A stretch of DNA of 64,000 nucleotides from Dehalococcoidia bacterium. Its GTDB lineage: Bacteria; Chloroflexota; Dehalococcoidia; Lucifugimonadales; UBA3495. A program made the position numbers and the translations under genes. The notes below the pieces were generated by a model that did not search any database, had not been told where the DNA came from, and saw only the letters and a program-made list of their open reading frames with translations. Below, piece after piece: positions 3,529 to 20,587 of this stretch (within the stretch, counting starts at the first letter, position 1; every line of letters begins with the position of its first letter). The stretch is taken from NCBI GenBank assembly GCA_965203195.1, contig OZ241860.1:1794334-1858333 (forward strand). Direction: 5' to 3'.

Positions 3529-4563
3529 TTACGCCAACGGTAGGTAGGGCAGAGCGTTGTCAGCCAGGAAAGTGTCGGCTATGCTGGCACCGTAGGTTGA
3601 GAGAGCTTGCTTGGCTTCACTGGGCAGAGAAGCGGATGCTTTGCGCCAGTCGTCGAGGCCGATGCGGCTGCCGGCTTCGGACGGTTCAATCCGGGTGATT
3701 TTGTCGCGTCCGATGAGCAGGCTGGCCTGTCCGATGGCATTCTGGGATTGAAAGTGCATGGCGGCAAAAATGACGTCCCACCAGAAGATGGCGCCGCCCA
3801 ACGTAGCTTGCCACGGCCGTATGGCGTATGGCGTTTCACCGCATCCTATGCTTAGGATGGAGATGTCCGCCCGGCGGGTACTGAAGGCGGACAGCGCTTC
3901 AACCAACCCGATCATTATCGGGTTGTTGGCCCAGACGCCGCCATCGGCGAAAATGTAGCCGTCGCGCCGCAGGGGTTTGAAATAAGTTGGCGCCGCAGAG
4001 GTAGCCGCGGCTACCTTCGTCATCGGCTCATCGCCGTCGCGCCTATAATCCGGGTGGTGCGGCGTTTTGAACACGTAAACGTCGCTATGGCGCCCGTCCA
4101 GCGAAGGTATGCATAGGCGACAGCGTGCGTCGCGCAGTTGGCGGTCGCCCAGAACGCCGGCCAGAATTCTGTCCAGGGGGCGCCTTTTGTAGGGGGCATG
4201 GAAGTAACGGCCTATTTTGCGCAGTTTCCGGAAGCGAGGTGGGAAAATCTCCCCGCCCTGGCTCTGGTACAAGGAGAGGAGGTCGGCAGCCGGTACGCCA
4301 GCCGCCAAACCCAAGGCGATGATGCCTCCGGTGGATGTGCCCACTACGAGGTCGAAGTAGTCGGCAACCGACGCGCCGGCCAAGCAATGCCGTTCCAGCC
4401 CGGCCAAAATCGCCGCTGTGAAAATGCCCCTGATACCGCCTCCATCCAGGGACAGAATGTGAAACGGCCGGCCGGGTGGCCATTCGTTTCTCTGGCGACG
4501 GTGTTGCAAGATGCCCGCCCTGCGCGGGGGCGGATCGGGTATAGCATTCATCCGCAGGTCCAT
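3529..4563 (-). CDS. patatin-like phospholipase (candidate CBASS effector, CapV/CapE-like)
   Basis: 'LDGGGIRG' oxyanion motif, 'GTSTGG' (GxSxG nucleophile) and 'ADGGVWANNP' (catalytic Asp). An alternative start at 4551 forms an ATGA overlap with the upstream gene. Confidence 0.8.
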   Translation of the reverse strand: MDLRMNAIPDPPPRRAGILQHRRQRNEWPPGRPFHILSLDGGGIRGIFTAAILAGLERHCLAGASVADYFDLVVGTSTGGIIALGLAAGVPAADLLSLYQSQGGEIFPPRFRKLRKIGRYFHAPYKRRPLDRILAGVLGDRQLRDARCRLCIPSLDGRHSDVYVFKTPHHPDYRRDGDEPMTKVAAATSAAPTYFKPLRRDGYIFADGGVWANNPIMIGLVEALSAFSTRRADISILSIGCGETPYAIRPWQATLGGAIFWWDVIFAAMHFQSQNAIGQASLLIGRDKITRIEPSEAGSRIGLDDWRKASASLPSEAKQALSTYGASIADTFLADNALPYLPLA

Positions 4564-4976
4564 TCTCCAATCGTGTGCCAGATTTCATAGCACAAGAGCC
4601 ATTCGCTGACCCACGGCACCATGTCGGCGATGGGGATGCCGGGGTGCCATTCGCCATTGCTGGCGTCGAACAGGCAGAGCGAGCGCAACCCCGGGCGTTC
4701 TGCGTATTCCAGGTGCGGAATAGGCTCGTTCGGCGCTTCGGGACGGCGGATAGGTGCTGGACACAGGATCTCCGCCTCAGGGCGTGTCACTATCGTGGTT
4801 ACGCCGCTTGGAACGGGACCTATGCGGCAGGAAATGCGAATGCGGTATCGCTTCCCGGCAGGGGTGATACAGCCTTCCCAAATGACCCGGTCGCCTTTCC
4901 GGGTCAAATTCAGGTCAGGGTATCTTCTGCGCATCCCTCGGGTGTGCTCTTGCATGGACAGCGGTGTTTCACGCAT
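4548..4976 (-). CDS. small E2/UBC-like protein (candidate E2-only Cap2-like accessory)
   Basis: 142 aa. 'IPHLEYAERPGLRSLCLFDASNGEWHPGIPIADMVPW' resembles the UBC 'HPN...G.ICL......W.P' flap with a Cys. It overlaps both neighbours. The call rests on this motif only. Confidence 0.4.
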   Translation of the reverse strand: MRETPLSMQEHTRGMRRRYPDLNLTRKGDRVIWEGCITPAGKRYRIRISCRIGPVPSGVTTIVTRPEAEILCPAPIRRPEAPNEPIPHLEYAERPGLRSLCLFDASNGEWHPGIPIADMVPWVSEWLLCYEIWHTIGEWTCG

Positions 4977-6201
4977 CTGATGGCCTGTGGAACTGGTGCC
5001 GGCGCGTGGACCGGGTGTTGCGAGGCCGCTGGGCAGTTGCGCCCGCCGGAATCACTACACTGGCCGTGCGATCGCGGTGTTCGGTCCGCCCCGATTTGAT
5101 TGCTTCGCCCAAGCGCTCGCCGTACCGTTTCAGAGCGTCTCTGGTGGGGTATTCACCAAACAGTTTGGCGAGGATTTTCCGCGTTTCGGCGGTGTCGGCG
5201 CCGGAGCGGATTTTCCGTACGTCGTCGGCGAAAGCGCGGATGTTGCTGACGAAGGTGCGCGCTTCCCGGCTGTCGACCGTCCAACGGTCGGTCAGGACAT
5301 CCTCATCGCATACCGGGTTGGTGATCGGTTGACGGTTGGCGATGTGCCGTTCGATAAATGTGGCGACCTTGCGAGTGGACGCTTCCAAGTCTGCGGACAG
5401 CGGCAGATTGGGATTCGATACCTCGGCCACAATGCGGGACAGCAGCACGGACGGCGGGCCGTTGTCCGTGCTGGACTGGTACTGGACATTGCGCCACTGC
5501 TTGATGAGCTGGAGCACAACCGTGGATTGCGATTTGTTCTCCACAACCTCGTGTTCCGGGACCGGCTCCTGGTCGGCAGCCATCTCGACTTGGTGCCGGT
5601 CGTAGTGCATGGCCAGCGACTTGAAGGCGGCCGCAAAGGGGTCGTCCTCCGTTTGGGTTTGCTTGTTGTACCATTCGGCGAGGCCGTGGGGGTTGGCAGT
5701 GAACCTCCGGTTTACGTGAGGCGTCTCCCTGCGGTTTTCGTATAGCCAGCTCTCCTTTTCCGGGGTTCCGGGTTTTCGGACCATGGGCGACAGGTCGAGG
5801 TGCATATCGGCGTACTCAATGGTGACGCAGCGGCTGCGGCGACGGGTCATGCCGAAATACCGGCTGCCCGTCGTGCCTTTGACGGCTTTGTACAGGGTGT
5901 CAAGCACGACTTTGGCCGGAGTTTCGCTCGGGATTTCCAACTCTACGACAACGTCGATGTCGTACCGGTCCTCGCTGTCGCGGGACAGGATGGTCGCGCC
6001 TATGGCCATGGACCCCTGTGGGTAAAGCAAACTGACGCGTCCCTGCAAGGGGCTGTCATCGCGTTCCAGCCACTCGGCTACCGTTCCGTAGCGCTGGGTG
6101 GCCTGATGATGCCGGGTAGGGCTGAGTTGAATCCGCGCGGCGATTTCGGCGAGCAGTTGGTCGGTCTGCCCCGTGAGGGGTTGGGCGCGTGGGGCAGGCA
6201 T
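4969..6201 (-). CDS. SMODS/CD-NTase-like nucleotidyltransferase (candidate CBASS cyclase)
   Basis: Pol-beta NTase signature 'QGSMAIGATILSRDSEDRYDIDVVVE' (GS...DxD) and a third acidic strand 'MHLDLSPMV'. A strong RBS 'aaggagg' lies upstream of the ATG at 6201. Confidence 0.65.
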   Translation of the reverse strand: MPAPRAQPLTGQTDQLLAEIAARIQLSPTRHHQATQRYGTVAEWLERDDSPLQGRVSLLYPQGSMAIGATILSRDSEDRYDIDVVVELEIPSETPAKVVLDTLYKAVKGTTGSRYFGMTRRRSRCVTIEYADMHLDLSPMVRKPGTPEKESWLYENRRETPHVNRRFTANPHGLAEWYNKQTQTEDDPFAAAFKSLAMHYDRHQVEMAADQEPVPEHEVVENKSQSTVVLQLIKQWRNVQYQSSTDNGPPSVLLSRIVAEVSNPNLPLSADLEASTRKVATFIERHIANRQPITNPVCDEDVLTDRWTVDSREARTFVSNIRAFADDVRKIRSGADTAETRKILAKLFGEYPTRDALKRYGERLGEAIKSGRTEHRDRTASVVIPAGATAQRPRNTRSTRRHQFHRPSDA

Positions 6202-7433: not shown

Positions 7434-8516
7434 GGTAGCGTTTCGTTTTAGGTGGTTTGGTTGATCAGGCCCTGCTCTTGCAGCAACGCCAGCAGGTTGT
7501 GCGCCGTCCACACCGTCCCCAACTTCTCCCGCCGCCGCAACTCCCGATTGTGCCGCTCCAAGCGCGACGTCGTCCGATGCGCCGCCTGCCCCGTCGCCAG
7601 ATGGCGCAGCCCTTTGGACAACGCTTTCTCGCACCAGTAACGCGCTACCCCATCCGTCGCCCGCATAATTCGCCGCGCCCATGCCCGACCTTCCGCCAGA
7701 CTGCCCGCATTCAACAACCGCCGCGCCGCCGCAAAACCCGCTACCCCAATGTTCCGCCGATACTCTCGCAGCAGGTGAAACGCGCACAGCTGATGCGGCG
7801 CTTCCACGCCATAAACCAGCTCAATCCCCGCCGCGATGGCCCCATCCCCATCGCTGACCAAATGCTGCGGATGCTGCGCCCCCTGCTGCCAGGCCAAGTC
7901 AATCACCTCGGCCCAAGGGCCAAAAGCCCACAGGGCTGTTCCCGCAGCAGCGTTGCGGATTACCTTCAATTCAGTACGTCCGCTACGGGTTCGCGTCCAC
8001 AGGCCATCCAGTTCCAGCGTTCCGTCCGGCGGCAATTGCGGCGCCGTCAAAGGCGCCTTCCGCAGCCACTGGCAAACCGTACTCTTGACGCAGCCCACCC
8101 AGTTTCCGGCGCGAGCGTAGCTCAATCCCCGCGCGGCCAGACTGATGGCGATGTCACGGTTTTTTTGGAAAACCGCTGGTGGCGCATTTCATCGCCCAGC
8201 AGCGTCATGCCGCCGGCCATACGCCGACACTGCCCGCAGCGGAACACCGGGATTTGCAGGCGGACTTCGCCGTAACTGGTGGCAATGGCGCGGGCATAAC
8301 GGTGGTGGCGATGCATGGCCAAACGGCAATGGTCGCAAAGGGGCTGGTAATCGTCCAGGGCTTGTTGGAGGGCGGTTTGGAGTTGGGCGGGGATTTGGCG
8401 TTCCAGTTGGGTTTCCAAGTGGTCCAGCAGTCCCATAGCGGCGTATCTCCGGCGGGGGCGGGGCGGGCATTGTACCTCCCATTTTATAACCAAACCACCT
8501 AAAACGAAACGCTACC
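7434..8516 (-). mobile_element. compact IS element (IS1-like organisation), apparently intact
   Basis: Perfect 27-bp terminal inverted repeats: 'ggtagcgtttcgttttaggtggtttgg' at 7434-7460 and its reverse complement at 8490-8516. It is flanked by a 9-bp direct repeat 'tagcgtttc' (7425-7433 and 8517-8525). Confidence 0.8.
7448..8493 (-). CDS. IS transposase, two frames joined by a putative programmed -1 frameshift
   Basis: OrfA (8493->8122) has a CxxC...CxxC zinc finger ('CDHC...CGQC') and contains the slippery run A7 ('tcc aaa aaa acc', 8160-8166). OrfB (8125->7448) lies in the -1 frame and carries 'HRTTSRLERHNRELRRREK'. Confidence 0.7.
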
Positions 8517-9475: not shown

Positions 9476-9751
9476 GCAATCTATGGAAGCAAGGGACCAG
9501 GGGCATTGCCTGGCGGTTATTCAGGCCGGCCGGCATTGGACTGGTGCGGGGCGGTGCGATGTCGGCCGCGTCGTGCGGGATGGCCAGCCCCGTGCCAAAA
9601 TGATTTTGGGAGCGCCCCGATCCGCGGGCCGGGGCTGATTCGGTGCTGGGTCCGTGGGCTTTTCTTTTTGCACCGCGCGTCTTATCAGTGCGGCCCGGCT
9701 TATGCCGGCCATTTGGGTACGCGTTCAGTCCGGGTTCCAATCACTGCGTCA

Positions 9752-10081
9752 TTAAAATCCGAATTGGTCCAGTTCATCGGATTCCCGGTCGTGCCATTGC
9801 GCTTGGCGTTGATAGCTATCCGCGATGCGTTGCAACAAGGCCGCGGTATGCGGCCATTTGGAGGCCATCATGCTTGCCTGTTGCTGGTATTTATCAGCCA
9901 GCGCGCGCTCCTGATTGCCGCCAGCGAATATAGCGCGCGTGGTTACTCCCCTGAGGTTGTGTTTTCCGCTGACGAATCCGGTTCCAATGCGCTGTGCGCC
10001 GGTTGCGAGCAGCTGTTCCAGTAACTCGCGCACTGGCGCGCAAGGCCATAGGCCATCTTCGTCGTCAGGCGCGTTGATCAC
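9752..10081 (-). CDS. hypothetical protein, last gene of the Ubl/DUF2971 operon
   Basis: 109 aa, starting 18 nt after the stop of the DUF2971-type gene. It has a helical 'GGNQERALADKYQQQASMMASKWPHTAALLQRIADSYQRQAQWHDRE' segment. The family was not identified. Confidence 0.45.
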   Translation of the reverse strand: MINAPDDEDGLWPCAPVRELLEQLLATGAQRIGTGFVSGKHNLRGVTTRAIFAGGNQERALADKYQQQASMMASKWPHTAALLQRIADSYQRQAQWHDRESDELDQFGF

Positions 10082-10099
10082 CTTGCATGGTCGTCGATT

Positions 10100-11131
10100 C
10101 TATCGACTGTCGGATCCCCGGTAGGGGATTGTGGATGACCTGACCCATGTGTGTTGCAGTCCCGCTCTTTCGGCAAGGTTTGCGATGTGCTTTTGAGCAT
10201 CACTCTGGCGCCGGACCCGAGGCCCAACGATGATTCCGGATCCGGACCTGAAAATGCCGTCCTCATGGCTGGTGGACAGATGATTGTGCTTGTGGTAGGC
10301 GCGGAATTGCCCGTTCCTGTATTCCGTATGCTGATTCACCGTTCCGTTGTCGCCTTCGGGCAGGACGACGATCCTGGACTCTCTTTCGTAGTCGTAGGCT
10401 TCGCTCTTGTATAGGTAGCTGATCAGTCGCAACTGTTCCCGTATGACGCGCTTCGCTTCCTGCTCCGCCGCTTCGTTGCCCAGTTTCTGGATCGGCACCA
10501 GAATGCGTTGACAGTATTCCGCTATGATGGCGGCGGTTGCACGTGCCTCATCTTCACCGTACCGCACCTTGCGCAAATCGCTTTCAGGTATCGTCACAAC
10601 CAGCGATACGCCTTCTCCGTCGTTGCCGTAACTGCGCCAGAGGGGCAAGTTGTCGGCCGCTTTGCGTACGTCTCGGGGACCGCGTGGCGTGACAAAAGAT
10701 GCAATGTAGGCATAGTTTTCCTCGATGAATGGTCGCTGCGGCGGGAAAAATTCTCGTAGCGACTCTATCCTGTTCGGTCCGATCCTGGCTTCGTACAGGT
10801 ACAAGCCTTCACCCGGATCGTTGAACGCGTCGGATGCGTACATCCGAAGATGGGCGTATTTTTCCGCCGCGTCGTTGGTGTTCTCCAGCAGATGGATTGC
10901 GGTCTCTACTTTGGTGTAGTGGACGACTTGGAGGGTAGAGACAGATTCCTCGCCGGCCCGTATGTGCTTGGCGTCCATAATGTTGGACGCCACGTTGGCC
11001 GTTGCTTTCGCTATCGCAGGGTGGATTTCATTGGCGATGGCGCGAAGGTTGTAGCTGTAGGATGATTGGGTGATACGCGCTACGGCTTCTTCGAGCACCA
11101 TGATCTGCTGGTAGGTTTCGCTGAAGTCCAT
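10100..11131 (-). CDS. DUF2971-type protein (putative effector of the Ubl operon)
   Basis: Start taken at 'MDFSETYQQ' (11131), 28 nt after the E1 stop. 'LQVVHYTKVETAIHLLEN...LRMYASDAFNDPGEG' matches the DUF2971 'YHYT....L......NDP.E' signature, from memory of the family. Confidence 0.55.
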   Translation of the reverse strand: MDFSETYQQIMVLEEAVARITQSSYSYNLRAIANEIHPAIAKATANVASNIMDAKHIRAGEESVSTLQVVHYTKVETAIHLLENTNDAAEKYAHLRMYASDAFNDPGEGLYLYEARIGPNRIESLREFFPPQRPFIEENYAYIASFVTPRGPRDVRKAADNLPLWRSYGNDGEGVSLVVTIPESDLRKVRYGEDEARATAAIIAEYCQRILVPIQKLGNEAAEQEAKRVIREQLRLISYLYKSEAYDYERESRIVVLPEGDNGTVNQHTEYRNGQFRAYHKHNHLSTSHEDGIFRSGSGIIVGPRVRRQSDAQKHIANLAERAGLQHTWVRSSTIPYRGSDSR

Positions 11132-11159
11132 TTGTCCGCTTCTCCTGGCGCTTCTGCGC

Positions 11160-12539
11160 TCACTTCTCGATGTAGGATGGCTTGACCCTGTCGCCGCCGG
11201 CTTTGCGCGCCGGGAACGGGCAGTAGTCTTGGCAGCGCTCATTGATTACGCGGGTCTGCCCGGTGATGAATTGGCAGTCCTGCTGTTTTACTTCAGGCCA
11301 CCAGTCCGGGCTGAGCAGATACCGCAACATCAAGTTGACGGCCATGCCCGCCACGCCCAGACTGAACGGGAACACATTCTGGCCTTCCGGCCGGCTTGCC
11401 TTGGGCAACGCGCTGATGTAGGAAGGATTGTCCAGAGAGCCGTCCAGCTCCGCGCTCACCATGCCTGTATTGTACTGTCCGTTGCAACGCAGGCACTGGT
11501 GATACGGAGTTACGATGTGCGCCCGCCAGTGGGCGTGGCTGAACTGTCCGTGCCGGTTCAGCGGGCCGACGCTCACGCCGCAATCGATGACGGGCACCAG
11601 GTGGGCGTTGGCGATGTGATTCAGAACGTCCCGGGCTACGGGCCGGTCCACGCAACTGAAAATTATATCGCAGTCCAGCGCCGCTAGGTAGGCGTCATTG
11701 TCCTGTACCGGCAGAGGCAACGCGGTGATTTGGGGCCGGTCCGCGGTGGCGTGAAGTTCCATCCGGTCTTTCGCCAGTTCCACCTTCAGTCTGCCAACAT
11801 CGTTTGTAGTTCCGTAGAGCAGGCGGTCCAGGTTGTGCGTCTCCACGCGGTCCGGGTCGATGAGAGTCAGGTCGCGCACTCCGATGCGCGCCATGGCTTC
11901 AGCGACGATGCAACCGACGCTGCCTAGTCCTGCGATGCCGACGCGTAGCCGCGAGATGTCGTTCTGCGCCTGGTCGCCCCAGCTGTCATGGGTTCGCTTC
12001 AGAACCTCGCGCCGGGGGCTTGGCCTGGCTCGCCGGTCGTTGAAGCGTAGCACGTAGGATTTGGGGCCGGCGATGCGCACCTTGTCGCACCAGTCCGGCC
12101 GGCTTTGCCCCTTGCGCCAGAAGCGGGCGCTCCAGTAACCGTCATTGCCGACGGTCAGCCCAACCAGGGGCAACCCGGCGGCGCCGGCGACCGGGGCCAG
12201 AACTTTCTGTTCGGCCCTGGCGTCGGCAACACTCAACGGTTGCCATCCGTGGTGTGGATGACTGTGCATGAACGCCAGGCCGGAGCCGCGCCGACAGGCT
12301 TCCGCAACGGCTCTGGCCGCGTAGCGGGATTGGAAGCTGGCGTTGCCGTGTAGGTCGCGCTCGCCGGGTTCCGGTGTGATGATCCGGTCGATCAGAGCGG
12401 TGACGCGGCGCGCTCCGGTAGAGGGTTGCCACAGGGCAAAGCAGAGGTCCTCCTGCCGCTCTCCTTTTCGGATGTGTTGTAGGAGGTGGTCGGAAGCGGT
12501 TTCGTTGGCCTCTGCGGTGAGGGCGGCTTCGTATTTCAT
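11160..12539 (-). CDS. fused JAB/JAMM metallopeptidase and ThiF/E1-like adenylyltransferase
   Basis: N-terminal JAMM 'EDLCFAL...HSHPHHGWQPLSVAD'. The central E1 Rossmann is 'VGIAGLGSVGCIVAEAMARIGVRDLTLIDPDRVETHNLDRL', with Cys pairs 'CLRC' and 'CQDYC'. The start ATG at 12539 forms an ATGA overlap with the upstream stop. Confidence 0.8.
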   Translation of the reverse strand: MKYEAALTAEANETASDHLLQHIRKGERQEDLCFALWQPSTGARRVTALIDRIITPEPGERDLHGNASFQSRYAARAVAEACRRGSGLAFMHSHPHHGWQPLSVADARAEQKVLAPVAGAAGLPLVGLTVGNDGYWSARFWRKGQSRPDWCDKVRIAGPKSYVLRFNDRRARPSPRREVLKRTHDSWGDQAQNDISRLRVGIAGLGSVGCIVAEAMARIGVRDLTLIDPDRVETHNLDRLLYGTTNDVGRLKVELAKDRMELHATADRPQITALPLPVQDNDAYLAALDCDIIFSCVDRPVARDVLNHIANAHLVPVIDCGVSVGPLNRHGQFSHAHWRAHIVTPYHQCLRCNGQYNTGMVSAELDGSLDNPSYISALPKASRPEGQNVFPFSLGVAGMAVNLMLRYLLSPDWWPEVKQQDCQFITGQTRVINERCQDYCPFPARKAGGDRVKPSYIEK

Positions 12540-12907
12540 ACATCCTTCCAGATGCGGCCGATGTGTTCCTTCACGTACACGCTCATGTGTTTGGTGGGGC
12601 GGCGGTCCCAGAAATCGCTTGGCGGCCGGCTCATTGCCAGCCATTGTCGTCCTTCCGTATCCTGGTAGATTTCCTTGGCGCCGCCGCGTCCGTCGTCAAG
12701 CGGCGGAGATATGTGCACCCAGTGCGGCGGATATTCCGGGTACTCGCCGTCGGGGTTGCTGACGCCGATGTGGACGGTTTTGCCGGCGTGGGAACCGCAC
12801 TCCATTTGATATTCGAAAGCGATGACCGTGCCCTGATTCCATTCAAAGACCTGTGTGGGGTAGCCGGAACCTTCCAGTTCCATGCGGATGCGCTCCGTTT
12901 GGTTCAT
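12536..12907 (-). CDS. E2/UBC-fold or RWD/UEV-like protein (prokaryotic E2 family-E-like)
   Basis: 123 aa with 'GEYPEYPPHWVHISPPL...GRQWLAMSRPPSDFW'. The only Cys is C37 ('MECGSHAG'), not at the expected catalytic position. Confidence 0.5.
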   Translation of the reverse strand: MNQTERIRMELEGSGYPTQVFEWNQGTVIAFEYQMECGSHAGKTVHIGVSNPDGEYPEYPPHWVHISPPLDDGRGGAKEIYQDTEGRQWLAMSRPPSDFWDRRPTKHMSVYVKEHIGRIWKDV

Positions 12908-12978
12908 GGTGAAATAACCTCTTTGCGCGCGACCGCCAGCAGTTACGCGCTGGCGGTCACGGCTACGCAGTCTTGGCG

Positions 12979-13236
12979 TCAGGCTACTTGGGTCGGCGTG
13001 TTGGGAAGGGAGATGAAAACGTTGTCCTTCTCCAGGTCAACCTGTTCGTTCCGGCCGTATTCCCTGTCATCGACAAGGATGCTTTTCAGGATGTACTCAT
13101 CCGGCGCGCCTGTGATTGCATTGTGCTTTTCGGCCAGCTCCAGGATGTCGTGGGCTACCACGAAACGGAACGACATCTCCATCTCGTCCCCGTTGACCTT
13201 CAGCGTGTAGGTGGTGCCGTCGTTCTGAGCAGTCAT
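12979..13236 (-). CDS. single-domain ubiquitin-like beta-grasp protein (multiubiquitin-family-like)
   Basis: ATG at 13236 preceded by 'aaggagagg'; 85 aa. 'TYTLKVNGDEMEMSF..VVAHDILELA...EYILKS...EQVDLEKDNVFISLPNTPT' fits the multiubiquitin repeat pattern. The C-terminus '...TQVA' lacks Gly. Confidence 0.55.
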   Translation of the reverse strand: MTAQNDGTTYTLKVNGDEMEMSFRFVVAHDILELAEKHNAITGAPDEYILKSILVDDREYGRNEQVDLEKDNVFISLPNTPTQVA

Positions 13237-13549
13237 GGCAATTCCTCTCCTTCTTCGGTTGAGGCGTGGCGGCAATTGGCGAGGTTTCCGGTTCTCGTCG
13301 TAAGAATTTGGCATTCTGACGGTTCTGTCCGATACGTTCATTTTCCCTGTCGACGCAAGGGCAGGGTTGCCCCCAGCAGGCGTAACCAGACGCCATAAAC
13401 AACATCCATGTTACCACCCGATTTTGCCGAAGGGTAGGTATCGTCATATGATTAGGGTTATTCAAAAGTGGGCTACTTCCGCTTGGCGGCGGGATTGCGG
13501 TTCCGCCTGCTGCTTGCCTCCCTCGGGTGCTTGGGGCGACCCGTGGCGG

Positions 13550-16500
13550 TTAGGCTGCCGGCGTGCTGTGCCGCGGCAGTATAGCACGCGCCTGCTCGTC
13601 AATCAAGCCGCTTATGCCGTTGGCGCGTAGCTCCCGGCGGATGGCTTCGCATAGCTTGATTTGCCCCGTGTCGGACGGCAGCCGGTCCCGCACGCCGGCA
13701 GCCGCCTGTTCCGCAGCGGCGCACAGCGACGCCAGCTCCCGGTGCCGCCCGTTCCCCCCATCATAGCGCGGGATGGGCACGGCGCGCCAGATGTGGTGGG
13801 CAAAATGACGGTCGGATTTGCGGCTGTCCTGGTACGCAGGTTGCAGGCAATCCGCGTTAAGCACGGCGACGAGGTACGCTGCTTCATCTGGAGTCAGTAC
13901 CGCAAGGTGGAACGTGGAGTTGTCGGCAATGTGATTTGCCGTCGTCCGCGCCGCGCGCAATGTCTGCCCGGCCAAGTTGTAAATCACTTTGGTAGGCGCA
14001 TTGCCGGCCCGGTTGGGGCCAATCTGGGCGAGTAGCCCGCCCTGGTGGTTAATACGGTCCCAGAGGGTTTGGGGAGTGGCCTCCCCTTTGCCTCTATTAG
14101 GCTGGTAGGCCGTCATTTCCGCCCAGCTCCAGTATTCATCCGCATCCCGCCGGGCGTCCAAATCCCGTTGGGTTGTTAAGGGAATGATCACTTTGCTGAC
14201 TTCCCCTCGCAGCGTGTAGTTCAGCAGGTCTTGCGAATAGACGGCATCGCTGATGTAGCGTTCCGGCACACTGCCGGCCGTGCCATTGAATTGGGGCCAA
14301 GCGGCGTGCCGGGCGTCGTCGGTTATGAAACTGACACGACGTCCTTTCCGGCCAGTGACTTTGGCGATTTTGACCAGGCTGTGGGGGAACAGCGTAGCCC
14401 CGTTGCGGAAATCAGGTTTGCCGCCGGTGAAGTATTCCGACCGTTCCGCTATGAAGCCTGCCTGTTTGACTACGATTGCCGAATTGGCCTGCGCCGTGGC
14501 GGCATCGTCGGCGCGGCGCACCCGCCGGCCGTCCTTATTTATCATTCTGGTCTGCGCCGGGCCGCCGGCGGGGGCCGTCCCCTGGATCAGGGCGCAGGAC
14601 TTGGCGCCGGTAAAGGGGGCGTCTTTCAGTTCGCCGAAGTCCAGAAACTCCGCGTTCCAGTCCTGGCTCTGTTCCCGCACCCGCTGCCAGTTGCTGCCCT
14701 TGATAGCGGCGCTGTTCAGCGCCCAGGCCACGCGGTTGTCGGCGTCGTTGCGCAGGTACATTTCGCGGCAGCGGATGACGAACAGGCCGCCGATGTCAAA
14801 GCCGGTGTTGGCCTTGCCGCCGGGCCACAGGTTCATATTGCCGATGAGCTGCTCCAGTTCCCGCTTGCGGCTCGCCACCTGGATATTGCTCATCCGCACC
14901 CAGGGCGGGTTGGCCAGGATGCGGTCCACCTTGCGCTCCTTGAGAGCGGCGGGGGATACGCTGTTGAAAATGTACCAGGCCCAGACGCTGTTGCCTTCCT
15001 CCTGGATAACTTCCCGCAGGGTTTCGTAGGTGCGGGCCAGGGTTTGGCGGTCGGATTCCAGCAGTCCGTCCAGGGCGTCGGAGGGCAGGGGTTGGTCCAG
15101 GTTGGCGGCGGCCACGAAGCGCTGCACCTTGGCGCCGAAGCCGGGGCGGGCCGCCCACTGGGTAGGTATTTGCAGATAGCGCCCGGCGCGGGATTCCAGG
15201 GTGTGGTAGGGCAGCCCGGCGGTGTTGGCCAGTTCCATACCCCGGTGGGTGTAGATCAGGGAATCGCCCTGGTAGATTTGCAGGGCTTCACTGCCGCCGG
15301 CCGGCTCGGCGGGCAGGGCGCGCATCAGGGTGGCGCGGCTGATTTCGGCGGCAATAGGGTGGATGTCAATGCCGTTGACCATCCGGGCAATGAAGTCGGC
15401 CTGCTCGGTGGGCGTGGCGCCGGCCTGTTGCAGGGCGGCGCTGTTGCGGATACGCAAGGCGGCATGATAGAGGAAGGTTCCCGACCCGCAGGCCGGATCC
15501 AGGATGCCGACGCCGGCCGGGGCGTCGCCGCTGTGCAGATAGCGGGCCACGGCCCGTTCCAGCCAGGCGTCGTCAATGATGCGGTCGGCCAGCATTCCGG
15601 CCAGCCAGTCGGGGGTGTAGTACTCGCCGAAGGCTTTGCGCTGGGCGGCGGGTATCAGCTCCTGGTAGATGTTGCGCAGCACATCCCGGGTGCGGGGACG
15701 CCAGTCGTAGGCATTGGCAGTGCGAAACACCTCCCGCGTCCAGTCCACGCCGGGCTGGTAGGTGGGGCCGTTTTCGTCCCGGTTTTGAGGCCAGGAGGCG
15801 AAGCCTTCGGCCATCACGCTGGCCGGGTCCTCGGGGCGTTCCCAGTCGCTCATGGTAGCGATGACGGCGCGGGCAATGGTGACCAGCAGGGTGTGGCTGA
15901 GGAACAGGTCGGTTTCCTCGTCCGCGCTTTCCGGGGCGCAGCCCGAGCCGCGCAGCATATCCAGCCAGAGTTCGCGCTTGGTCTGCGTGGCGGGTTCATC
16001 CTGCAACCCGGAGTAAAGGCGGCGCAATGGTTCCAGATGGGGCGTGAAAATGTCGGTGGGATTGGCGGGAATGACGGGCCGGGTTGCGGCGGCGTCGGCA
16101 AAGATTTGGTGTAGGGCTTCGTGGATGCTGCCCGTTTCCTGCGTCCGGGCGTAGATGTCGGCCAGCAGCTCCGGTGCGGTGCGCTGGGGCAGATCCCGGC
16201 TGACGATGATGCGGCGGAGTTCCGTCCGGTCGCCGCCGGCCGGGAGGGGCCACACGAACTCCAGCCGGTCGTTGGGGCCGTTGCTGAATGCCAGCAGGGG
16301 GTCGGTGCCGACGCGGTCGGTCACGGCCCGGGCTGCCGCTGCGGCGGCGCTTTTGTTGATGCGGGTTCGTGTGGGGTCGGGGAGGGCAATGTAGGCTGCG
16401 GCAACGCCGTCATAGTCGGCAATGTGGTGGGCATCGGCCGGCAGGTTGTCGTGGGCGGGCAGCGGTATAACGCCGTGGGCCGGTTCAAAGTCCAGAGTTT

Positions 16501-16825
16501 CGGCGAACAGGGTACGCAGCCGGTTGGCGCGCTGGCCGGCGTCGGCCGCGGCAAAGATGCCGGCAATGGCGATGGCGACGCGGGCGGCGTCGGTGTCATT
16601 GGCGGCCTGGTCTGCGGTCGGTTCCGGGCGCATTGCTTCCCAATCCTCCATTTCTTGCTGTAGATCCTGTAGTACGCTTTTCGCCGCGTCCAGTTTGACC
16701 TGGCTTATGGCCGGCGACTCTCCGGGGATGCGTTGGGCTTCGCCGCTTTCCATCAAGGCGACCAGGCGGGCGAACTGGCGCGCCCGCTCTTGCGTCACCC
16801 GGTACTCGTTTTCGTTGGCAATCAT
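13550..16825 (-). CDS. large N6-adenine DNA methyltransferase (Eco57I/PglX-like gamma-class)
   Basis: 1091 aa. SAM motif I 'GILDPACGSGTFLYHA', motif IV 'ILANPPWVRMS', 'EYYTPDWLA', and an N-terminal 'RLRTLFAETLDFEP' as in defence-type methylases. Confidence 0.8.
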   Translation of the reverse strand: MIANENEYRVTQERARQFARLVALMESGEAQRIPGESPAISQVKLDAAKSVLQDLQQEMEDWEAMRPEPTADQAANDTDAARVAIAIAGIFAAADAGQRANRLRTLFAETLDFEPAHGVIPLPAHDNLPADAHHIADYDGVAAAYIALPDPTRTRINKSAAAAAARAVTDRVGTDPLLAFSNGPNDRLEFVWPLPAGGDRTELRRIIVSRDLPQRTAPELLADIYARTQETGSIHEALHQIFADAAATRPVIPANPTDIFTPHLEPLRRLYSGLQDEPATQTKRELWLDMLRGSGCAPESADEETDLFLSHTLLVTIARAVIATMSDWERPEDPASVMAEGFASWPQNRDENGPTYQPGVDWTREVFRTANAYDWRPRTRDVLRNIYQELIPAAQRKAFGEYYTPDWLAGMLADRIIDDAWLERAVARYLHSGDAPAGVGILDPACGSGTFLYHAALRIRNSAALQQAGATPTEQADFIARMVNGIDIHPIAAEISRATLMRALPAEPAGGSEALQIYQGDSLIYTHRGMELANTAGLPYHTLESRAGRYLQIPTQWAARPGFGAKVQRFVAAANLDQPLPSDALDGLLESDRQTLARTYETLREVIQEEGNSVWAWYIFNSVSPAALKERKVDRILANPPWVRMSNIQVASRKRELEQLIGNMNLWPGGKANTGFDIGGLFVIRCREMYLRNDADNRVAWALNSAAIKGSNWQRVREQSQDWNAEFLDFGELKDAPFTGAKSCALIQGTAPAGGPAQTRMINKDGRRVRRADDAATAQANSAIVVKQAGFIAERSEYFTGGKPDFRNGATLFPHSLVKIAKVTGRKGRRVSFITDDARHAAWPQFNGTAGSVPERYISDAVYSQDLLNYTLRGEVSKVIIPLTTQRDLDARRDADEYWSWAEMTAYQPNRGKGEATPQTLWDRINHQGGLLAQIGPNRAGNAPTKVIYNLAGQTLRAARTTANHIADNSTFHLAVLTPDEAAYLVAVLNADCLQPAYQDSRKSDRHFAHHIWRAVPIPRYDGGNGRHRELASLCAAAEQAAAGVRDRLPSDTGQIKLCEAIRRELRANGISGLIDEQARAILPRHSTPAA

Positions 16826-17259
16826 GGCAGTGTCCTCAAATCGATGGCGACGATTCCTTTGGGGTTGACCTGGCGGTCGGTTTGGAAAAATTCGAAAAAA
16901 GTGCGCCCCTGTTTATCGGCAACAGCGTCCGCAGGGAATAGTTCGCCACCGTAGGTTTGCTTCTGCGCCTGGCGTGAATTGCTGAAGTCCAGCAGCGCGG
17001 GATGCAGCAGGTCAAGGTTCACGCCGTAAATTTCCCAGGCGGCGTCGAAGTCGCCAGGGTGTTCTTTATCGGTTACGAAACTGCCATTGAGATAAACTCT
17101 GGCGCATCCGGCCTGCTTCAGGTTTTGCAGGGCTTGGAACAGGCCGTCCAACAGCGCCTGCCGATGCGGGTTGGTTCCAAAGCGATGAGCTACTTCCTGC
17201 CAGGTGGCTTCGTGAATGCCGGGCGGCAGGTTGCCGTTGGGGAGAAAGCGTGGAATCAT
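16822..17259 (-). CDS. minimal nucleotidyltransferase (MNT/DUF6932-like)
   Basis: 145 aa with 'RVYLNGSFVTDKEHPGDFDAAW' (GS...DxD). Its stop overlaps the methyltransferase start (ATGA at 16822-16825). Confidence 0.5.
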   Translation of the reverse strand: MIPRFLPNGNLPPGIHEATWQEVAHRFGTNPHRQALLDGLFQALQNLKQAGCARVYLNGSFVTDKEHPGDFDAAWEIYGVNLDLLHPALLDFSNSRQAQKQTYGGELFPADAVADKQGRTFFEFFQTDRQVNPKGIVAIDLRTLP

Positions 17260-17308: not shown

Positions 17309-20300
17309 CTAGGCAAGCCCGTCGGAGCAGACGATGCGGACGGGAGAGGGCAGTTCAGCGGCGGCGGTTTCAGTTTCACGGTTAGGACGCAGGGCGTACA
17401 ATTCGGCCAGTCGTTCGAGGCGTCGGGTCAGTTCCCGGCCGGCGATATGTTCCCGGCGCATGGCGGCAATGGCGGCGTCCACCGTAGCGGAGTAATCCCG
17501 GTTGGCGTAGATGCGGCGCATTCGCTCCACCGTGCGACGGTAGCTGGCGTCGTTGCCGGCCTCGCCCCGGGCCCGGTTCAGCTCCCGGTTGATGTAACGC
17601 TGGTTTTCGGTGCGCCGGGGCGCGTCAATCAACCGGGCGGGCGGAATGCTGCGGAAGGCGTGGTAGGCGGCCATCACCCGGTCGTTGGTGTTGGCCGGCA
17701 GCCGCCGGGGCGGCGTGTGCGGGTCGCACTGGGCCAGGGCCAGGAACTCGTCCGGCTCAACTGGCGCGGGTTGCAGGTCGTCGCCCACGGCGTAGCAGGC
17801 GTGTTCCGGGCCGCGCGCCAGCATCACTATGGTCTTGCCCTTGTGCGGGCCTTGCGGCGCGATAACGGCGGCGCGGATGCCGTCGGGCAGGCGGGATGCG
17901 TGGTCGTACAGATCGGGGTCGTCATCTCTGATGCGTTGCAGCAGGGCGATGTTGTTCTGCGTGGCGGCGCCGGCGTCCAGCAGGTCGTCGGTTGCGTCGT
18001 CCGGCAGCTCGCCCTGGGCATAGATGCGGTACATCGCCTCGGTGTTGAGTTTTTCGTCCGGGGACAGCACCGGACTGTCGGCGCCGATGACATTGTGGAA
18101 AGACCGGATGCGCGCGCCGATGCGGTCGGTCAGGGACAGGGTTTCGTCAATGCCGGCGTCGGGCCACATATTGTGCAGGTACACCGTGTCGGCCACAGCG
18201 CCGATGCGGTCCACGCGCCCGAAGCGCTGGATGAGCTTGACCGGGTTCCAGTGCAAATCGTAGTTGACGACCCGGTAGCAGTCTTGCAGGTTCTGGCCTT
18301 CGGACGCTACGTCGGTGGCGAGCAGGATGCGGATGGGGCGCTCCAGGATGTCGCGGCGGCTGGCCTGGTTGGACGCCGGCGAAAAGCGGGCAATGATGTC
18401 GGCCTGGCGGTCGTTGTTGCGGCTGGTCAGCATGGCGATTTCCGAGTTGTCGCCGCCGGGGTTCAGCTCCCGATACAGGTATTCCACCGTGTCGCGGGAT
18501 TCGGAAAACACCAGCGCCTTTTCGTTCCGCGCCGCCAGCGTGTCCAGAAAGGCGCGCAGTCGGGACAGCTTGTCATCGTCCGGGGCGCCAATGTCGTCGA
18601 TGCTGTCGCGGATGGCGGCCAGCAGATCGCAGTCGGACTTCAGGTCAGCCCGCCAGCGTCCGACGTTGAAATGACTCGCCGGGTGGGCGTTGTGGCGACC
18701 GCTCTCCGCCTCGTCGTCAGCCAGGTCGTCCAGCATCCGGTCGGGATCGAAGTCAGGGTCGTTGAGCAGGCGGGTCGCCAGCCGGCCGGTGGGAACATAG
18801 CCGTTCTCCAGCGCTTTGCGGAAATTTTCGTTGCTCTTGATCAGGGTGTCCAGCGTGCAACGAAAGGCGTGGACGCTGGACTCCAGCCGTTTCAGCGTCA
18901 GGGTTTTGATAAGGCCGGCGACGCGGCCCCGGCTACGCTTGAGGGCGTCGTAGCGCCGGTCGTCCCGATGGGCCGGCTTCAGGTAGTCCAGCGGCTGGTA
19001 GCGGGCGCCTTTGTGCCGCTTCAGCAATTTAAACAGGGCTGTGGAGCCGCCGGCGGCCGCATAAACCTGGTCCAGCCGGTAGGCCAGGTTCTCCAGTTGC
19101 GGAGTCGGAAACTTGACGGGCTGGCCGTTGACTTCGGCGCTGTCGCCGTAGATTTCAACGATGTCGCGGCGCCGGCGGCGGATAAAGATGGGCGTCAGCG
19201 CCCGCTGGATGGCGCGGCGGGCTGCTTCGCTGTCGGCGGCGTCTTTGCTGTGGGCGCGGAAGTAGCGTTGCAGGTTCGGCGGGTCAATGGGCAGGCCGTG
19301 GTCGTCATCGTCCATAAAGGCGCTGACCTGGTGGTAGATGTCCATAGACGACAGGTTCTGCGGCGTGGCGCTGAGCAGAATGACCTTGTGGTCGCCGTCC
19401 TGCAAGTAGTTTTTGACGCCGCGATAGCGGTTGTTGGAGCTGTTGCGGAAATGATGCGCTTCGTCAATCAGCACCGGGCCGTTGTGGGGGTATCGCTGCG
19501 ACAAGGACTGCCCGCGGACGGATATGTCGTTGAAAACCCAGTCCTCCTGTTCCTCGTCCCACTCCGCTTCGGCCGGCGCGGCGATGTTGCTTTGGGAAAC
19601 GATGTCCGCGCCCAGCTGGTAGATCTGGTTCACGTCTTGCCACATTGGAACCAGGGGCGCCGGGCAGATGATGAGCGGGTTGCCGGCCCTGGATTCAATG
19701 GACTTGAGTTGCTCCAGAATCTTGGCGCCCACGAAAGTTTTGCCCAGGCCGACCACGTCGCCGATGTAGCAGCCGCCGTGTTCGGCGATGATGTCCAGGC
19801 CGCGCCGCACGGCGTCCAGCTGGAAGTTGGCCAGTTGTGGACCGCGGCCGCCAGCCTCGATAATCGCGTCGCCGGTTTTGCCGTGGTGGAGTTCGTAGAG
19901 GGCTTTGAGATAAACATCGTAGGGCCGGGTTTCGGCTACCGCCCAGGAACGGTCCAGCTCCGCCAGGGCCAGCTCGGTGATGTCGGCGGCGTCCTGCCAG
20001 AGGTTTTCGAACCAGGCGTCCAGGTCGGCGACTTCGCGCCCGTCAAAGCGGACATTCAGCTCGGTGTTCCCCGCGAACCCGGCCAGGGAGAAGTTGGACG
20101 AGCCGACGATGGCCGAGCTCTGGACGGCCACGCGGTCGTAGTGGCAGATGTAGGCTTTGGCGTGCAGCCTCTCTTTGAGGTAGGCGCGGATTTCCAGCCG
20201 GCCGGCGGCGATGAGGTCGCGGATGCGGGTTATGCCCTGCTGTTCGCCGTCGATTTGCGGGGAGCTGCCGGCGGAGTTGCCTACCTGCCGGGCGGCTTCA

Positions 20301-20587
20301 CCCCGGAGCCGGTCGCTCTCGGAGCGGCGGATGGGGGTATGCGCCGCCAGATATTCGCCCAGGGTGTCGTGGTGGTTGATGGCGGCGGCTACGTCGTCCA
20401 GGACTGGCCGGTCGGTGCGTCCCACCAGGATGCGGATTTCAGCGACGCCGGATAGTTCGTGGGCCACTGCGGTGAAGCCGGACATAAAGAAATAGCCCAC
20501 GGCAATATCGGCCGACCTGGCCTCAGTGAGGATGGCCTTGAAATCCTCGGTGAAGGTGGGAACGCTGGTGGCGTGGATGATGTTCAT
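17309..20587 (-). CDS. PLD-family nuclease domain fused to an SNF2-family helicase/ATPase
   Basis: N-terminal HKD motif 'LHAKAYICH...IVGSSNFSLAG'. SNF2 motifs are 'GDVVGLGKTFVG', 'LIDEAHHFRN', 'LLSATPQN' and 'ATDVASEGQNLQ...NYDLHWNPVKLIQRFGRVDRIG'. Confidence 0.85.
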   Translation of the reverse strand: MNIIHATSVPTFTEDFKAILTEARSADIAVGYFFMSGFTAVAHELSGVAEIRILVGRTDRPVLDDVAAAINHHDTLGEYLAAHTPIRRSESDRLRGEAARQVGNSAGSSPQIDGEQQGITRIRDLIAAGRLEIRAYLKERLHAKAYICHYDRVAVQSSAIVGSSNFSLAGFAGNTELNVRFDGREVADLDAWFENLWQDAADITELALAELDRSWAVAETRPYDVYLKALYELHHGKTGDAIIEAGGRGPQLANFQLDAVRRGLDIIAEHGGCYIGDVVGLGKTFVGAKILEQLKSIESRAGNPLIICPAPLVPMWQDVNQIYQLGADIVSQSNIAAPAEAEWDEEQEDWVFNDISVRGQSLSQRYPHNGPVLIDEAHHFRNSSNNRYRGVKNYLQDGDHKVILLSATPQNLSSMDIYHQVSAFMDDDDHGLPIDPPNLQRYFRAHSKDAADSEAARRAIQRALTPIFIRRRRRDIVEIYGDSAEVNGQPVKFPTPQLENLAYRLDQVYAAAGGSTALFKLLKRHKGARYQPLDYLKPAHRDDRRYDALKRSRGRVAGLIKTLTLKRLESSVHAFRCTLDTLIKSNENFRKALENGYVPTGRLATRLLNDPDFDPDRMLDDLADDEAESGRHNAHPASHFNVGRWRADLKSDCDLLAAIRDSIDDIGAPDDDKLSRLRAFLDTLAARNEKALVFSESRDTVEYLYRELNPGGDNSEIAMLTSRNNDRQADIIARFSPASNQASRRDILERPIRILLATDVASEGQNLQDCYRVVNYDLHWNPVKLIQRFGRVDRIGAVADTVYLHNMWPDAGIDETLSLTDRIGARIRSFHNVIGADSPVLSPDEKLNTEAMYRIYAQGELPDDATDDLLDAGAATQNNIALLQRIRDDDPDLYDHASRLPDGIRAAVIAPQGPHKGKTIVMLARGPEHACYAVGDDLQPAPVEPDEFLALAQCDPHTPPRRLPANTNDRVMAAYHAFRSIPPARLIDAPRRTENQRYINRELNRARGEAGNDASYRRTVERMRRIYANRDYSATVDAAIAAMRREHIAGRELTRRLERLAELYALRPNRETETAAAELPSPVRIVCSDGLA

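Follow-up and report, generated by a model that had tools for sequence, protein, structure and literature searches.

A putative ubiquitin-like conjugation module related to Type I Bub and a co-inherited DUF2971 gene in a probable mobile defence cassette of a Dehalococcoidia bacterium

Gene content of the locus and the encoded proteins

The analysis concerned a stretch of 64,000 nt from a Dehalococcoidia bacterium (GCA_965203195.1, contig OZ241860.1, positions 1,794,334-1,858,333), called the window throughout, and within it a cassette of four minus-strand genes in which a putative ubiquitin-like (Ubl) conjugation trio is accompanied by a gene of the DUF2971 family. The trio comprises genes for an 85-aa Ubl (12979-13236), a 123-aa E2-like protein with a predicted UBC-like fold (12536-12907) and a 459-aa fusion of a JAB peptidase, with its JAMM motif intact, to a ThiF-type E1 domain (JAB-E1; 11160-12539). 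The DUF2971 gene (343 aa; 10100-11131), predicted to encode an ADP-ribosyltransferase (ART)-like effector, comes next, and an open reading frame (ORF) of 109 aa with a GTG start lies beyond it (9752-10081). All five ORFs were found on the minus strand where the initial annotation of this DNA had placed them, and the shorter start codons chosen there, not the longest ORFs, match the homologues in the related loci L002, L065 and L088.

The spacers between the genes measure 71 nt (Ubl/E2-like), 28 nt and 18 nt, and the ATG of the JAB-E1 gene overlaps the stop codon of the E2-like gene (ATGA). The Ubl gene is preceded by a ribosome-binding site, GAAGGAGAGG, and by a gap of 314 nt. The region 13237-13606 of the minus strand, made up of this non-coding DNA and the 3' end of a neighbouring restriction-modification (RM)-like gene, is tentatively taken as the probable promoter region of the cassette; a sigma-70-like promoter match, which is a consensus match only, was detected at 13606-13578 of the minus strand, with 9 of 12 positions plus a TG extension. 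Additionally, a strong RNA hairpin with a stem of 14-16 bp was predicted at 12925-12963 (minus strand), in the spacer between the Ubl stop codon and the ribosome-binding site of the E2-like gene (dG -37.7 kcal/mol, z = -3.9, with none of 200 shuffles folding equally well). This spacer is usually only 15-30 nt long in relatives, against 71 nt in the window, and the hairpin, apparently restricted to the sub-lineage of the window, could possibly set the ratio of Ubl to E2/E1 expression.

Relatives were collected in a genome scan with one genome per species, which yielded 80 loci from at least 12 phyla; co-occurrence was counted over 82 loci, namely these 80 and two metagenome contigs. For the five proteins of the window, NCBIfam offered no specific family, only generic ThiF/MoeB models, and a PRTRC assignment was dropped, the PRTRC ThiF model scoring far under its cut-off.

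The JAB-E1 protein gave the clearest affiliation. Its best match among solved structures was Citrobacter BubCD (9ea4, 458 aa), with E = 4e-19 for the single sequence and 7e-28 for the family profile. BubCD belongs to the operons earlier known as '6E' or DUF6527 operons and now called Bub (Ye, Gong, Chambers, Corbett, 10.1101/2024.11.21.623953; PDB 9ea4, 9ea8, 9eae), whose Type I form (formerly 6E.1) combines a Ubl-E2 fusion (BubAB) and a JAB-E1 fusion (BubCD) with the DUF6527 serine protease BubE (10.1101/2024.11.21.623953). After BubCD, the E1 domain was most similar by sequence to MoeB, ThiF and MccB, and the Pfam ThiF model matched it with E = 6.5e-30. The match to Pfam Prok-JAB was weak, yet all JAMM residues are in place (E30, H92xH94, S103, D106), and so are those for adenylation: a GLGSVG motif, R239 (aligned to BubCD R227), K252 and D298. 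Both sets of residues are invariant among relatives down to 28% identity. The cysteines C349, C352 and C440 are kept as well and fit a CxxC-type zinc site. The identity of the JAB-E1 proteins is 36-75% within the clade and falls to 28% for a DUF6527-carrying Bub operon on the Bradyrhizobium plasmid p1. When a library of representative sequences was searched, 392 clusters (50% identity) were retrieved at E <= 1e-30, and the best 150 matches all lay within this family.

Bub E1 and E2 enzymes have no catalytic cysteine and work through oxyester intermediates; BubCD uses an invariant tyrosine of the crossover loop, Y370, and the Bub E2 uses an invariant serine, S333, together with H335 and D299 (10.1101/2024.11.21.623953). 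Among JAB-E1 relatives down to 28% identity, Tyr374 was the only invariant residue of the crossover loop, and the loop has no conserved cysteine. By analogy, Tyr374 is proposed as the catalytic residue and the counterpart of BubCD Y370.

The Ubl was predicted to be a single beta-grasp domain of the BubA/multiubiquitin type that ends in ...NTPTQVA, with Ala85 as the last residue. Its AlphaFold2 model (pLDDT 82) had its best Foldseek matches in the multi-ubiquitin structures 8u38, 9cd2 and 9d59 and in BubA (9ea8_B), with TMq of 0.64-0.69 and rmsd of 2.1-2.9 A, in agreement with the beta-grasp fold first suggested for this protein. Pfam Multi_ubiq matched the window protein weakly and 29 of 69 relatives; searches of PDB sequences with the single Ubl and with the Ubl family profile gave nothing meaningful.

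The lack of a C-terminal glycine, already pointed out in the initial annotation, is real and constitutes a true difference from Bub, the place of the glycine being taken by an invariant Val-Ala. The C-terminal Ubl motif of the clade reads T-P/Q-V-A, with the alanine invariant, and 56 of the 72 unique Ubls from the genome loci stop exactly at [VI]A. Eight others (about 11%) run 2-9 variable residues past the VA. In one more, from L005 (6366-7004), the Ubl continues in frame into the E2 across the Val-Ala, as ...TPVA followed by TIPEMSDNINRIK..., the arrangement seen in BubAB. A second set, the window Ubl and 59 database relatives (n = 60), contained eight relatives with 3-6 extra C-terminal residues. 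These extensions look like pro-peptides, which are the classic mark of a Ubl precursor trimmed to its reactive terminus. From the stop at VA in most proteins, together with the extended and fused precursors, it can be argued that Ala85 may be the residue that is activated and that the JAB domain may be the trimmer. A C-terminal alanine is a proven substrate of Type II CBASS conjugation in some systems (PMC10097602). The JAB domain is intact in every relative, although most of the Ubls need no trimming. Two further layouts were observed among the Ubl genes: a 157-aa Ubl with two beta-grasp domains in L053 (6122-6595), and, in L014 (5512-7001), L018 (768-2257) and L032 (5501-7001), two tandem copies of the Ubl-E2 pair upstream of only one JAB-E1 gene, so that two Ubl/E2 pairs are served by one E1.

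The AlphaFold2 model of the E2-like protein (pLDDT 92.7) consists of an N-terminal helix, a four-stranded meander and a C-terminal helix. Citrobacter BubB (9eae_C) was its top Foldseek match (probability 0.91, E = 0.11, TM 0.44), followed by UbcH7, Ubc12, UBE2H and UbcH8 with weak E-values of 0.1-1. The model and these matches support the UBC-like assignment originally given to this protein. No Pfam family matched the window protein, and Prok-E2_E was matched by 18 of 75 relatives, at best with E = 3.7e-4. The invariant residues include Y33, G38, P61-H62-W63, D72, W89, S93-R94 and W100-D101. Ser93-Arg94 is part of the motif (A/T)MSRPP, which is closely followed by a short helix and Trp100, and actinobacterial relatives (36-42% E1 identity) keep this Ser-Arg as W..HSR. 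C37 is the sole cysteine of the window protein and is not conserved among relatives. Since Bub E2s use an invariant serine, and Ser93 is invariant while C37 is not, a catalytic Ser-E2 is more likely than the inert UEV/RWD-type protein that had been considered, and Ser93 is proposed, by analogy, as the catalytic residue.

An additional stand-alone E2-like paralogue was present in L050, L058, L062, L067, L070 and L081 (approximately 9670-12110, minus strand), just beyond the DUF2971 gene and convergent to it. These six paralogues are 51-56% identical to the window E2-like protein, and the cassettes are of the co-directional type. The recurrent duplication of the E2 hints that this protein sets the target specificity.

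The DUF2971 protein was assigned by Pfam (PF11185) with 26.2 bits against a cut-off of 22, and the same family was matched by 38 of 60 relatives; the PADLOC candidate family PDC-S31 also matched it (E = 1.3e-6). DUF2971 has been placed in the ADP-ribosyltransferase superfamily as a DarT/AbiGi-like family with a conserved tyrosine and an ExE motif (PMC12522546), and a DUF2971 protein from a lactococcal plasmid constitutes the single-gene antiphage system Aristaios (PMC11381338). The similarity of the window protein to plasmid DUF2971 proteins is low (25.7%). Invariant or nearly invariant positions of the subfamily are HYT 71-73, NDPxEG 104-109, W165..Y168-G169..G174-C175-S176, K242...Y246...E249xE251xR253 and a C-terminal S-x-I-P-Y-R tail. 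Lys242, which adjoins the ExE motif (E249-x-E251), is invariant. By analogy with this family assignment, the protein is predicted to be an ART-like effector. In L065 (4230-5254), a Dehalococcoidia metagenome-assembled genome (MAG) that is the closest genome relative, the DUF2971 gene matched in two frames, which reflects either a frameshift (a pseudogene) or an assembly error.

Distribution, co-inheritance and genomic setting

The loci were found in Chloroflexota (mostly Dehalococcoidia), Latescibacterota, Binatia, Nitrospirales, Thermodesulfobacteriota, Tectimicrobiota/Entotheonella, Gamma- and Alphaproteobacteria, Acidobacteriota, Spirochaetia, Gemmatimonadota, Bdellovibrionales and Acidimicrobiia. 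The E1 identity to the window protein was 52-66% for most of them and 93% for L065. In tblastn searches, the E2-like gene was detected at all 82 loci, the Ubl gene at 77 and a DUF2971 homologue at 67 (about 80%). The DUF2971 gene stands directly 3' of the E1 gene in all cases except L050, where a degenerate partial E1 copy intervenes. The four-gene arrangement is far beyond chance.

The orientation of the DUF2971 gene was counted at 64 loci, 52 of which are convergent and 12 co-directional, as in the window. In 27 of the 52 convergent loci, the 3' ends of the E1 and DUF2971 genes overlap by exactly 35 bp; in these, e.g., L001 (9436-9473), the E1 protein has a C-terminal extension of about 30 aa, which the window protein does not have. 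Such a convergent overlap could let transcription of the trio and that of the DUF2971 gene interfere with each other. A mirror-tree comparison of pairwise identities over 50 loci gave r = 0.85 for E1 and DUF2971 (Mantel p = 0.001), no lower than r = 0.75 for E1 and E2 and r = 0.71 for E1 and Ubl. The DUF2971 protein evolves faster than the E1, with a mean identity of 36% against 64%. In a reverse search of JGI metagenomes from the DUF2971 subfamily, seven loci were found, and the trio was present in all five that had enough flanking DNA, these five representing only 2-3 distinct sequences. Co-conservation of the DUF2971 gene with the JAB-E1 gene had been set beforehand as the observation by which the proposal should be judged, and it was borne out in the 67 loci, in the mirror-tree correlation and in the reverse search.

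The 109-aa ORF did not follow the same pattern. Apart from the window, only the near-identical contig L002 has it, and it was absent from all 80 genome loci. In L088, whose cassette is 98% identical, it is also absent and a GMC oxidoreductase gene follows DUF2971. Pfam gave nothing on the protein, which is 41-43% identical to the last 100 or so residues of plasmid HTH/HigA-family proteins of more than 1,300 aa from Arthrobacter, Shewanella and Rhizobium. This ORF, first listed as a helical fifth member of the operon, was therefore rejected as a component, being absent from relatives and matching the C-terminus of long HTH/HigA-type proteins; a rearrangement probably left it behind as the remnant of a gene, or it is an unrelated neighbour. 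The proposed five-gene order is accordingly reduced to four genes that do recur.

Nearly all of the 80 genome loci come from MAGs, many of them with names or lineages that are sponge-associated, as judged from the names only (Candidatus Spongiihabitans, Spongiisociaceae, Entotheonella/Tectimicrobiota, Gammaproteobacteria AqS3, Langseth_MAG, APA_bin and SB06xx Acidimicrobiaceae). Its spread over at least 12 phyla of mostly uncultured bacteria suggests that the cassette is intensely exchanged by horizontal transfer in sponge-type microbiomes. A scan of IMG/VR viral contigs gave no relatives and no sign of a phage-borne cassette.

The defence-island setting noticed at the outset was confirmed by the genes on both sides of the cassette, all of them on the minus strand. 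On one side lies a CBASS with a patatin-like phospholipase effector (3529-4563; PADLOC E = 1.9e-107) and a CD-NTase (4969-6201; E = 9.4e-122); no Cap2 or Cap3 gene was detected among the window genes scanned. Between this CBASS and the cassette, two ORFs of 225 and 123 aa with a weak match to MULE transposase (7448-8493) look like a split or degraded IS transposase. On the other side were found a Type IIG RM-like methylase/nuclease of 1091 aa (13550-16825), a DUF6932 protein (PADLOC PDC-M63A; 16822-17259) and an HKD(PLD)-Snf2 helicase of 1092 aa (17309-20587), all three being defence-type genes. The cassettes of L002 and L088 are bordered by these three genes too, the RM-like gene being reduced there to 836 aa. 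The flanks of other relatives carry RM, DarT, CBASS, TIR, transposase and integrase genes.

Moreover, in at least six loci an XRE-HTH gene and a Peptidase_M78 gene (IrrE/CapP-like) lie directly upstream of the Ubl gene and co-directional with it. Pairs were found in L003 (4989-6127), L019 (5211-6166), L052 (5049-6271), L070 (5210-6296) and L072 (4948-5942), and in L063 (5501-6229) only the M78 gene was scanned individually. The window itself does not have this pair. Such genes belong to the CapH/CapP-type regulator class, which is associated with CBASS and with Bub and accompanies 31% of Bub operons (10.1101/2024.11.21.623953).

Comparison with Bub and other known systems

The trio resembles Type I Bub in several respects. 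It has a JAB-E1 fusion of nearly equal length (459 and 458 aa) with intact peptidase and adenylation sites, an E1 loop with an invariant tyrosine (its position inferred, not aligned) and no catalytic cysteine, a UBC-like E2 with an invariant serine in place of a conserved cysteine, and a multiubiquitin-type beta-grasp Ubl. The setting among mobile elements and defence genes is shared, as are CapH/CapP-like regulators at some loci, and L005 even has the Ubl-E2 fusion. The differences are that the Ubl ends in an invariant Val-Ala and not in a conserved Gly, that Ubl and E2 are separate genes and not a BubAB pre-protein, that a single Ubl domain is present and not three filament-forming domains, that the E2 has Ser-Arg and His62 instead of Ser-x-His and Asp, and that a DUF2971 ART-like gene is co-inherited.

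The protease BubE could not be found. All Bub operons are stated to have a bubE gene (10.1101/2024.11.21.623953). Pfam gave no DUF6527 match in the scanned window genes, nor was one present in the precomputed Pfam calls around L001, L002 and L088; DUF6527 was not among the top 25 families listed for 118 flanking ORFs, and a tblastn search with the Bradyrhizobium BubE, a single query of limited sensitivity, found nothing over 1.3 Mb of loci and the window. The published Bub catalogue was assembled from operons containing DUF6527, which would explain why this clade is missing from it. At 28% E1 identity, the Bradyrhizobium plasmid does carry a Bub operon with DUF6527. In this operon (L085, Bradyrhizobium sp. 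62B plasmid p1), an unannotated E2-like ORF with the motifs PPGYP...PDCFW...WFSWH was observed at 4534-4944, between the annotated multiubiquitin and ThiF genes, and a 529-aa protein with an HGDLHxxN kinase-like motif was spotted by eye.

With Bil (BilABCD), the cassette shares the Ubl, E2, JAB and E1 parts, the location in defence islands and the lack of an E3, and the duplication and diversification of the E2 in relatives hints at target choice by the E2, as proposed for BilB. Bil differs in its separate JAB gene, its multidomain IAD-AAD-CYS E1 with a catalytic cysteine, its Cys E2, its Gly-ended Ubl and the lack of an ART partner, whereas here JAB is fused to a single-domain E1 without a loop or domain cysteine and the E2 has no conserved cysteine. 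Type II CBASS, with Cap2 and Cap3, is similar in that an immune effector pathway is controlled by E1-type adenylation and conjugation, which a JAB peptidase can undo, and in that some systems accept a C-terminal alanine. By contrast, Cap2 is an E2-E1 fusion working through Cys thioesters, the protein conjugated is the CD-NTase and not a beta-grasp Ubl, and the CBASS effectors are activated by cyclic nucleotides. The PADLOC Cap2 models matched only the ThiF core of JAB-E1 (residues 179-339), and the CD-NTase at 4969-6201 belongs to the separate neighbouring CBASS with the patatin effector.

The DUF2971 protein is comparable with Aristaios and DarT in its domain, which scores above the Pfam cut-off, in its HYT and ExE motifs, which fit the predicted ART core, and in its defence context. 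Unlike Aristaios, which acts alone, and DarT, which has a macro-domain antitoxin, it is partnered by a Ubl conjugation trio. The Ubl itself is unlike the sulfur carriers ThiS and MoaD, its terminus being Val-Ala and not Gly-Gly, and no rhodanese or biosynthetic genes are conserved nearby.

These comparisons modify the first description of the locus. Its kinship with '6E' holds, now under the name of Bub, and so does the list of parts consisting of Ubl, E2-like protein, JAB-E1 and DUF2971, while Bil was the wrong comparator. Among the departures from 6E/Bil that had been listed, the Gly-less Ubl and the DUF2971 gene are real. The JAB-E1 fusion is the defining design of Type I Bub and the Cys-less E2 is the Bub norm, so neither of these counts as a departure, and the 109-aa gene drops out. 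No description of a Ubl system with a DUF2971 partner, or of this architecture, was found in the literature, in keeping with the earlier statement that none was known. As to whether the architecture already has a name, the core is that of a described kind (Bub), and it fails three defining features of that kind, namely BubE, the Gly terminus and the Ubl-E2 fusion; no description of its association with DUF2971 was found.

Proposed mode of action and alternative explanations

Taken as a whole, the locus is probably a mobile defence-island cassette in which a Type I Bub-related conjugation module is combined with a DUF2971 ART-like effector. The parts of this interpretation differ in strength. 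That the trio is a conjugation module of the Bub family is very likely, and a functional coupling of the module to the DUF2971 protein is likely; an anti-phage role of the cassette appears somewhat more plausible than not, and any specific mechanism of coupling is doubtful.

In the scheme envisaged, the 85-aa Ubl would be made with a free C-terminal Val-Ala or trimmed to it by JAB. The ThiF-type E1 domain would adenylate Ala85, Tyr374 of the crossover loop would accept the Ubl as an oxyester, and the Ubl would be handed from Tyr374 to Ser93 of the Cys-less E2-like protein, which would transfer it to a target, perhaps a protein of the phage or else the DUF2971 protein. The JAB domain would also strip conjugates, replacing the missing BubE protease. 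The DUF2971 protein would be the killing or blocking arm, its activity or licensing depending on the conjugation module, and upon infection the ADP-ribosylation of DNA or protein would arrest phage replication. Here oxyester chemistry is presumed by analogy with Bub, and the role of JAB as a deconjugase and the coupling of conjugation to the ART are likewise presumed. As far as is known, no ubiquitin-like cascades other than the Bub pathways proceed through oxyesters.

Several observations weigh against this interpretation. The likeness of the Ubl and the E2-like protein to BubA and BubB comes from structure prediction and Foldseek, the sequence searches of the PDB having given nothing meaningful: for the E2-like protein and its family, neither single-sequence nor profile searches of PDB sequences found a match, and an hhalign comparison of the E2 profile with the E2-like ORF of L085, one Bub-operon sequence, was not significant, with only the YPxxP region aligned. 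The link of the modelled E2-like protein to BubB is thus weak by sequence and carries a Foldseek E-value of 0.11. The Ser-x-His and Asp constellation of Bub is not present, Ser93 being followed by Arg with no His at +2, and the same non-significant alignment puts His62 opposite the Asp of the L085 PDCFW motif, which was taken as the Bub Asp (the D299 equivalent). The equivalence of Tyr374 and BubCD Tyr370 is drawn from conservation and not from alignment, the HMM alignments ending at about residue 329. For DUF2971, a profile search against PDB sequences found nothing, and an hhalign comparison of the profile with one DarT sequence (L015) found no relation, this single-sequence template being uninformative; no macro or NADAR antitoxin-type ADP-ribose hydrolase is encoded in the cassette. 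Phage protection by canonical Bub operons has not yet been reported (10.1101/2024.11.21.623953).

The remaining objections concern the association of the trio with the DUF2971 gene. The latter is mostly on the opposite strand, and hence not co-transcribed with the trio. At 15 of 80 loci (about 19%) the trio occurs without DUF2971, so it does not need it; these loci have other defence genes alongside (RM, CBASS, TIR, QueC/TGT-like and HNH). A TIR gene at L015 was considered as a replacement effector for DUF2971. A patatin gene at L033 was dismissed as a swapped-in effector, since it is part of a neighbouring CBASS that includes a SMODS cyclase. Trios on actinobacterial plasmids (Clavibacter, Mycobacterium avium, Rhodococcus), whose Ubls end in ...GGVA or ...ADVA, have neither DUF2971 nor DUF6527. 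The trio is a core that stands on its own; DUF2971 is an accessory specific to this clade and is inherited tightly together with it.

These same facts are the basis of the alternative that survives best, although we consider it unlikely: two independent defence units, a self-sufficient Bil/Bub-like trio and an Aristaios-like single-gene abortive-infection toxin, would be merely linked, with no biochemical crosstalk. The opposite strand of DUF2971 in 52 of 64 loci, the trios without it at 15 loci and on actinobacterial plasmids, the activity of a DUF2971 protein on its own in Lactococcus (PMC11381338) and the usual habit of defence genes to cluster all agree with this. However, the adjacency in about 80% of the loci, the fixed 35-bp 3' overlap, the spread over at least 12 phyla and the correlation of 0.85 exceed ordinary island clustering. 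The adjacency also survives the switch to the co-directional order (12 loci including the window), and the reverse search met this DUF2971 subfamily only beside the trio, in a small number of loci.

A toxin/antitoxin relationship is less probable still. In such a pair, the DUF2971 ART would be toxic constitutively, and the trio, as a type VII-like enzymatic antitoxin, would neutralise it by attaching Ubl to it; removal of the Ubl by JAB, or decay of the Ubl supply during infection, would free the toxin. The absence of a macro or NADAR antidote gene with the ART-like gene, the tight linkage with a convergent overlap that permits transcriptional interference, the invariant Lys242 beside the ExE motif and the retention of JAB although most Ubls need no trimming would all be consistent with this. 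On the other hand, Aristaios needs no antitoxin (PMC11381338). A whole clade of trios is conserved without the toxin, including those on actinobacterial plasmids (36-42% identity), which would be unexpected for a dedicated antitoxin.

Finally, it is very improbable that no protein is conjugated at all and that the locus encodes a carrier of the ThiS/MoaD/CysO/QbsE type or an MccB/PaaA-like peptide-modifying system with the E2-like protein as a non-catalytic adaptor: the E1 domain is nearest to MoeB, ThiF and MccB after BubCD, the E2-like protein has no conserved cysteine and no significant sequence match to any E2, and JAB-type trimming of carriers is known from CysO/Mec+ and QbsE/QbsD, but no rhodanese, sulfurtransferase or biosynthetic partner occurs in the cassette or its conserved flanks, the Gly-Gly terminus of carrier proteins is absent, the invariant loop Tyr and E2 Ser match the demonstrated conjugation chemistry of Bub, and the defence-island and mobile-element context comes with CapH/CapP-like regulators.

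Within the interpretation of a Bub-related module coupled to an ART-like effector, a stronger version can be formulated, speculative as it is, in which a single bacterial immune cassette would couple Ubl conjugation to ADP-ribosylation, either chemically or through regulation. In one form, the Bub-like Ser/Tyr-oxyester cascade would attach the Ala-ended Ubl onto ADP-ribose marks made by the DUF2971 protein on phage DNA or protein, or the two modifications would occur in the reverse order; this would be the bacterial equivalent of the eukaryotic DELTEX/PARP ubiquitin-ADP-ribose hybrid modification. In the other, conjugation of the Ubl to the ART would switch the latter on or off reversibly, as a 'type VII' control of a toxin by a ubiquitin-like protein. 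Either form, if true, would also provide a natural example of a Ubl whose activated residue is a C-terminal alanine.

The clade can be regarded as a natural experiment, in which a Bub-like core without BubE, with a C-terminal chemistry based on Ala, is joined to a gene of recognisable effector type. Having been built from DUF6527-containing operons, the Bub catalogue likely misses a large family; the search made here retrieved 392 clusters (50% identity, E <= 1e-30). With toxicity as a read-out, what Bub-type conjugation does could become open to direct testing.

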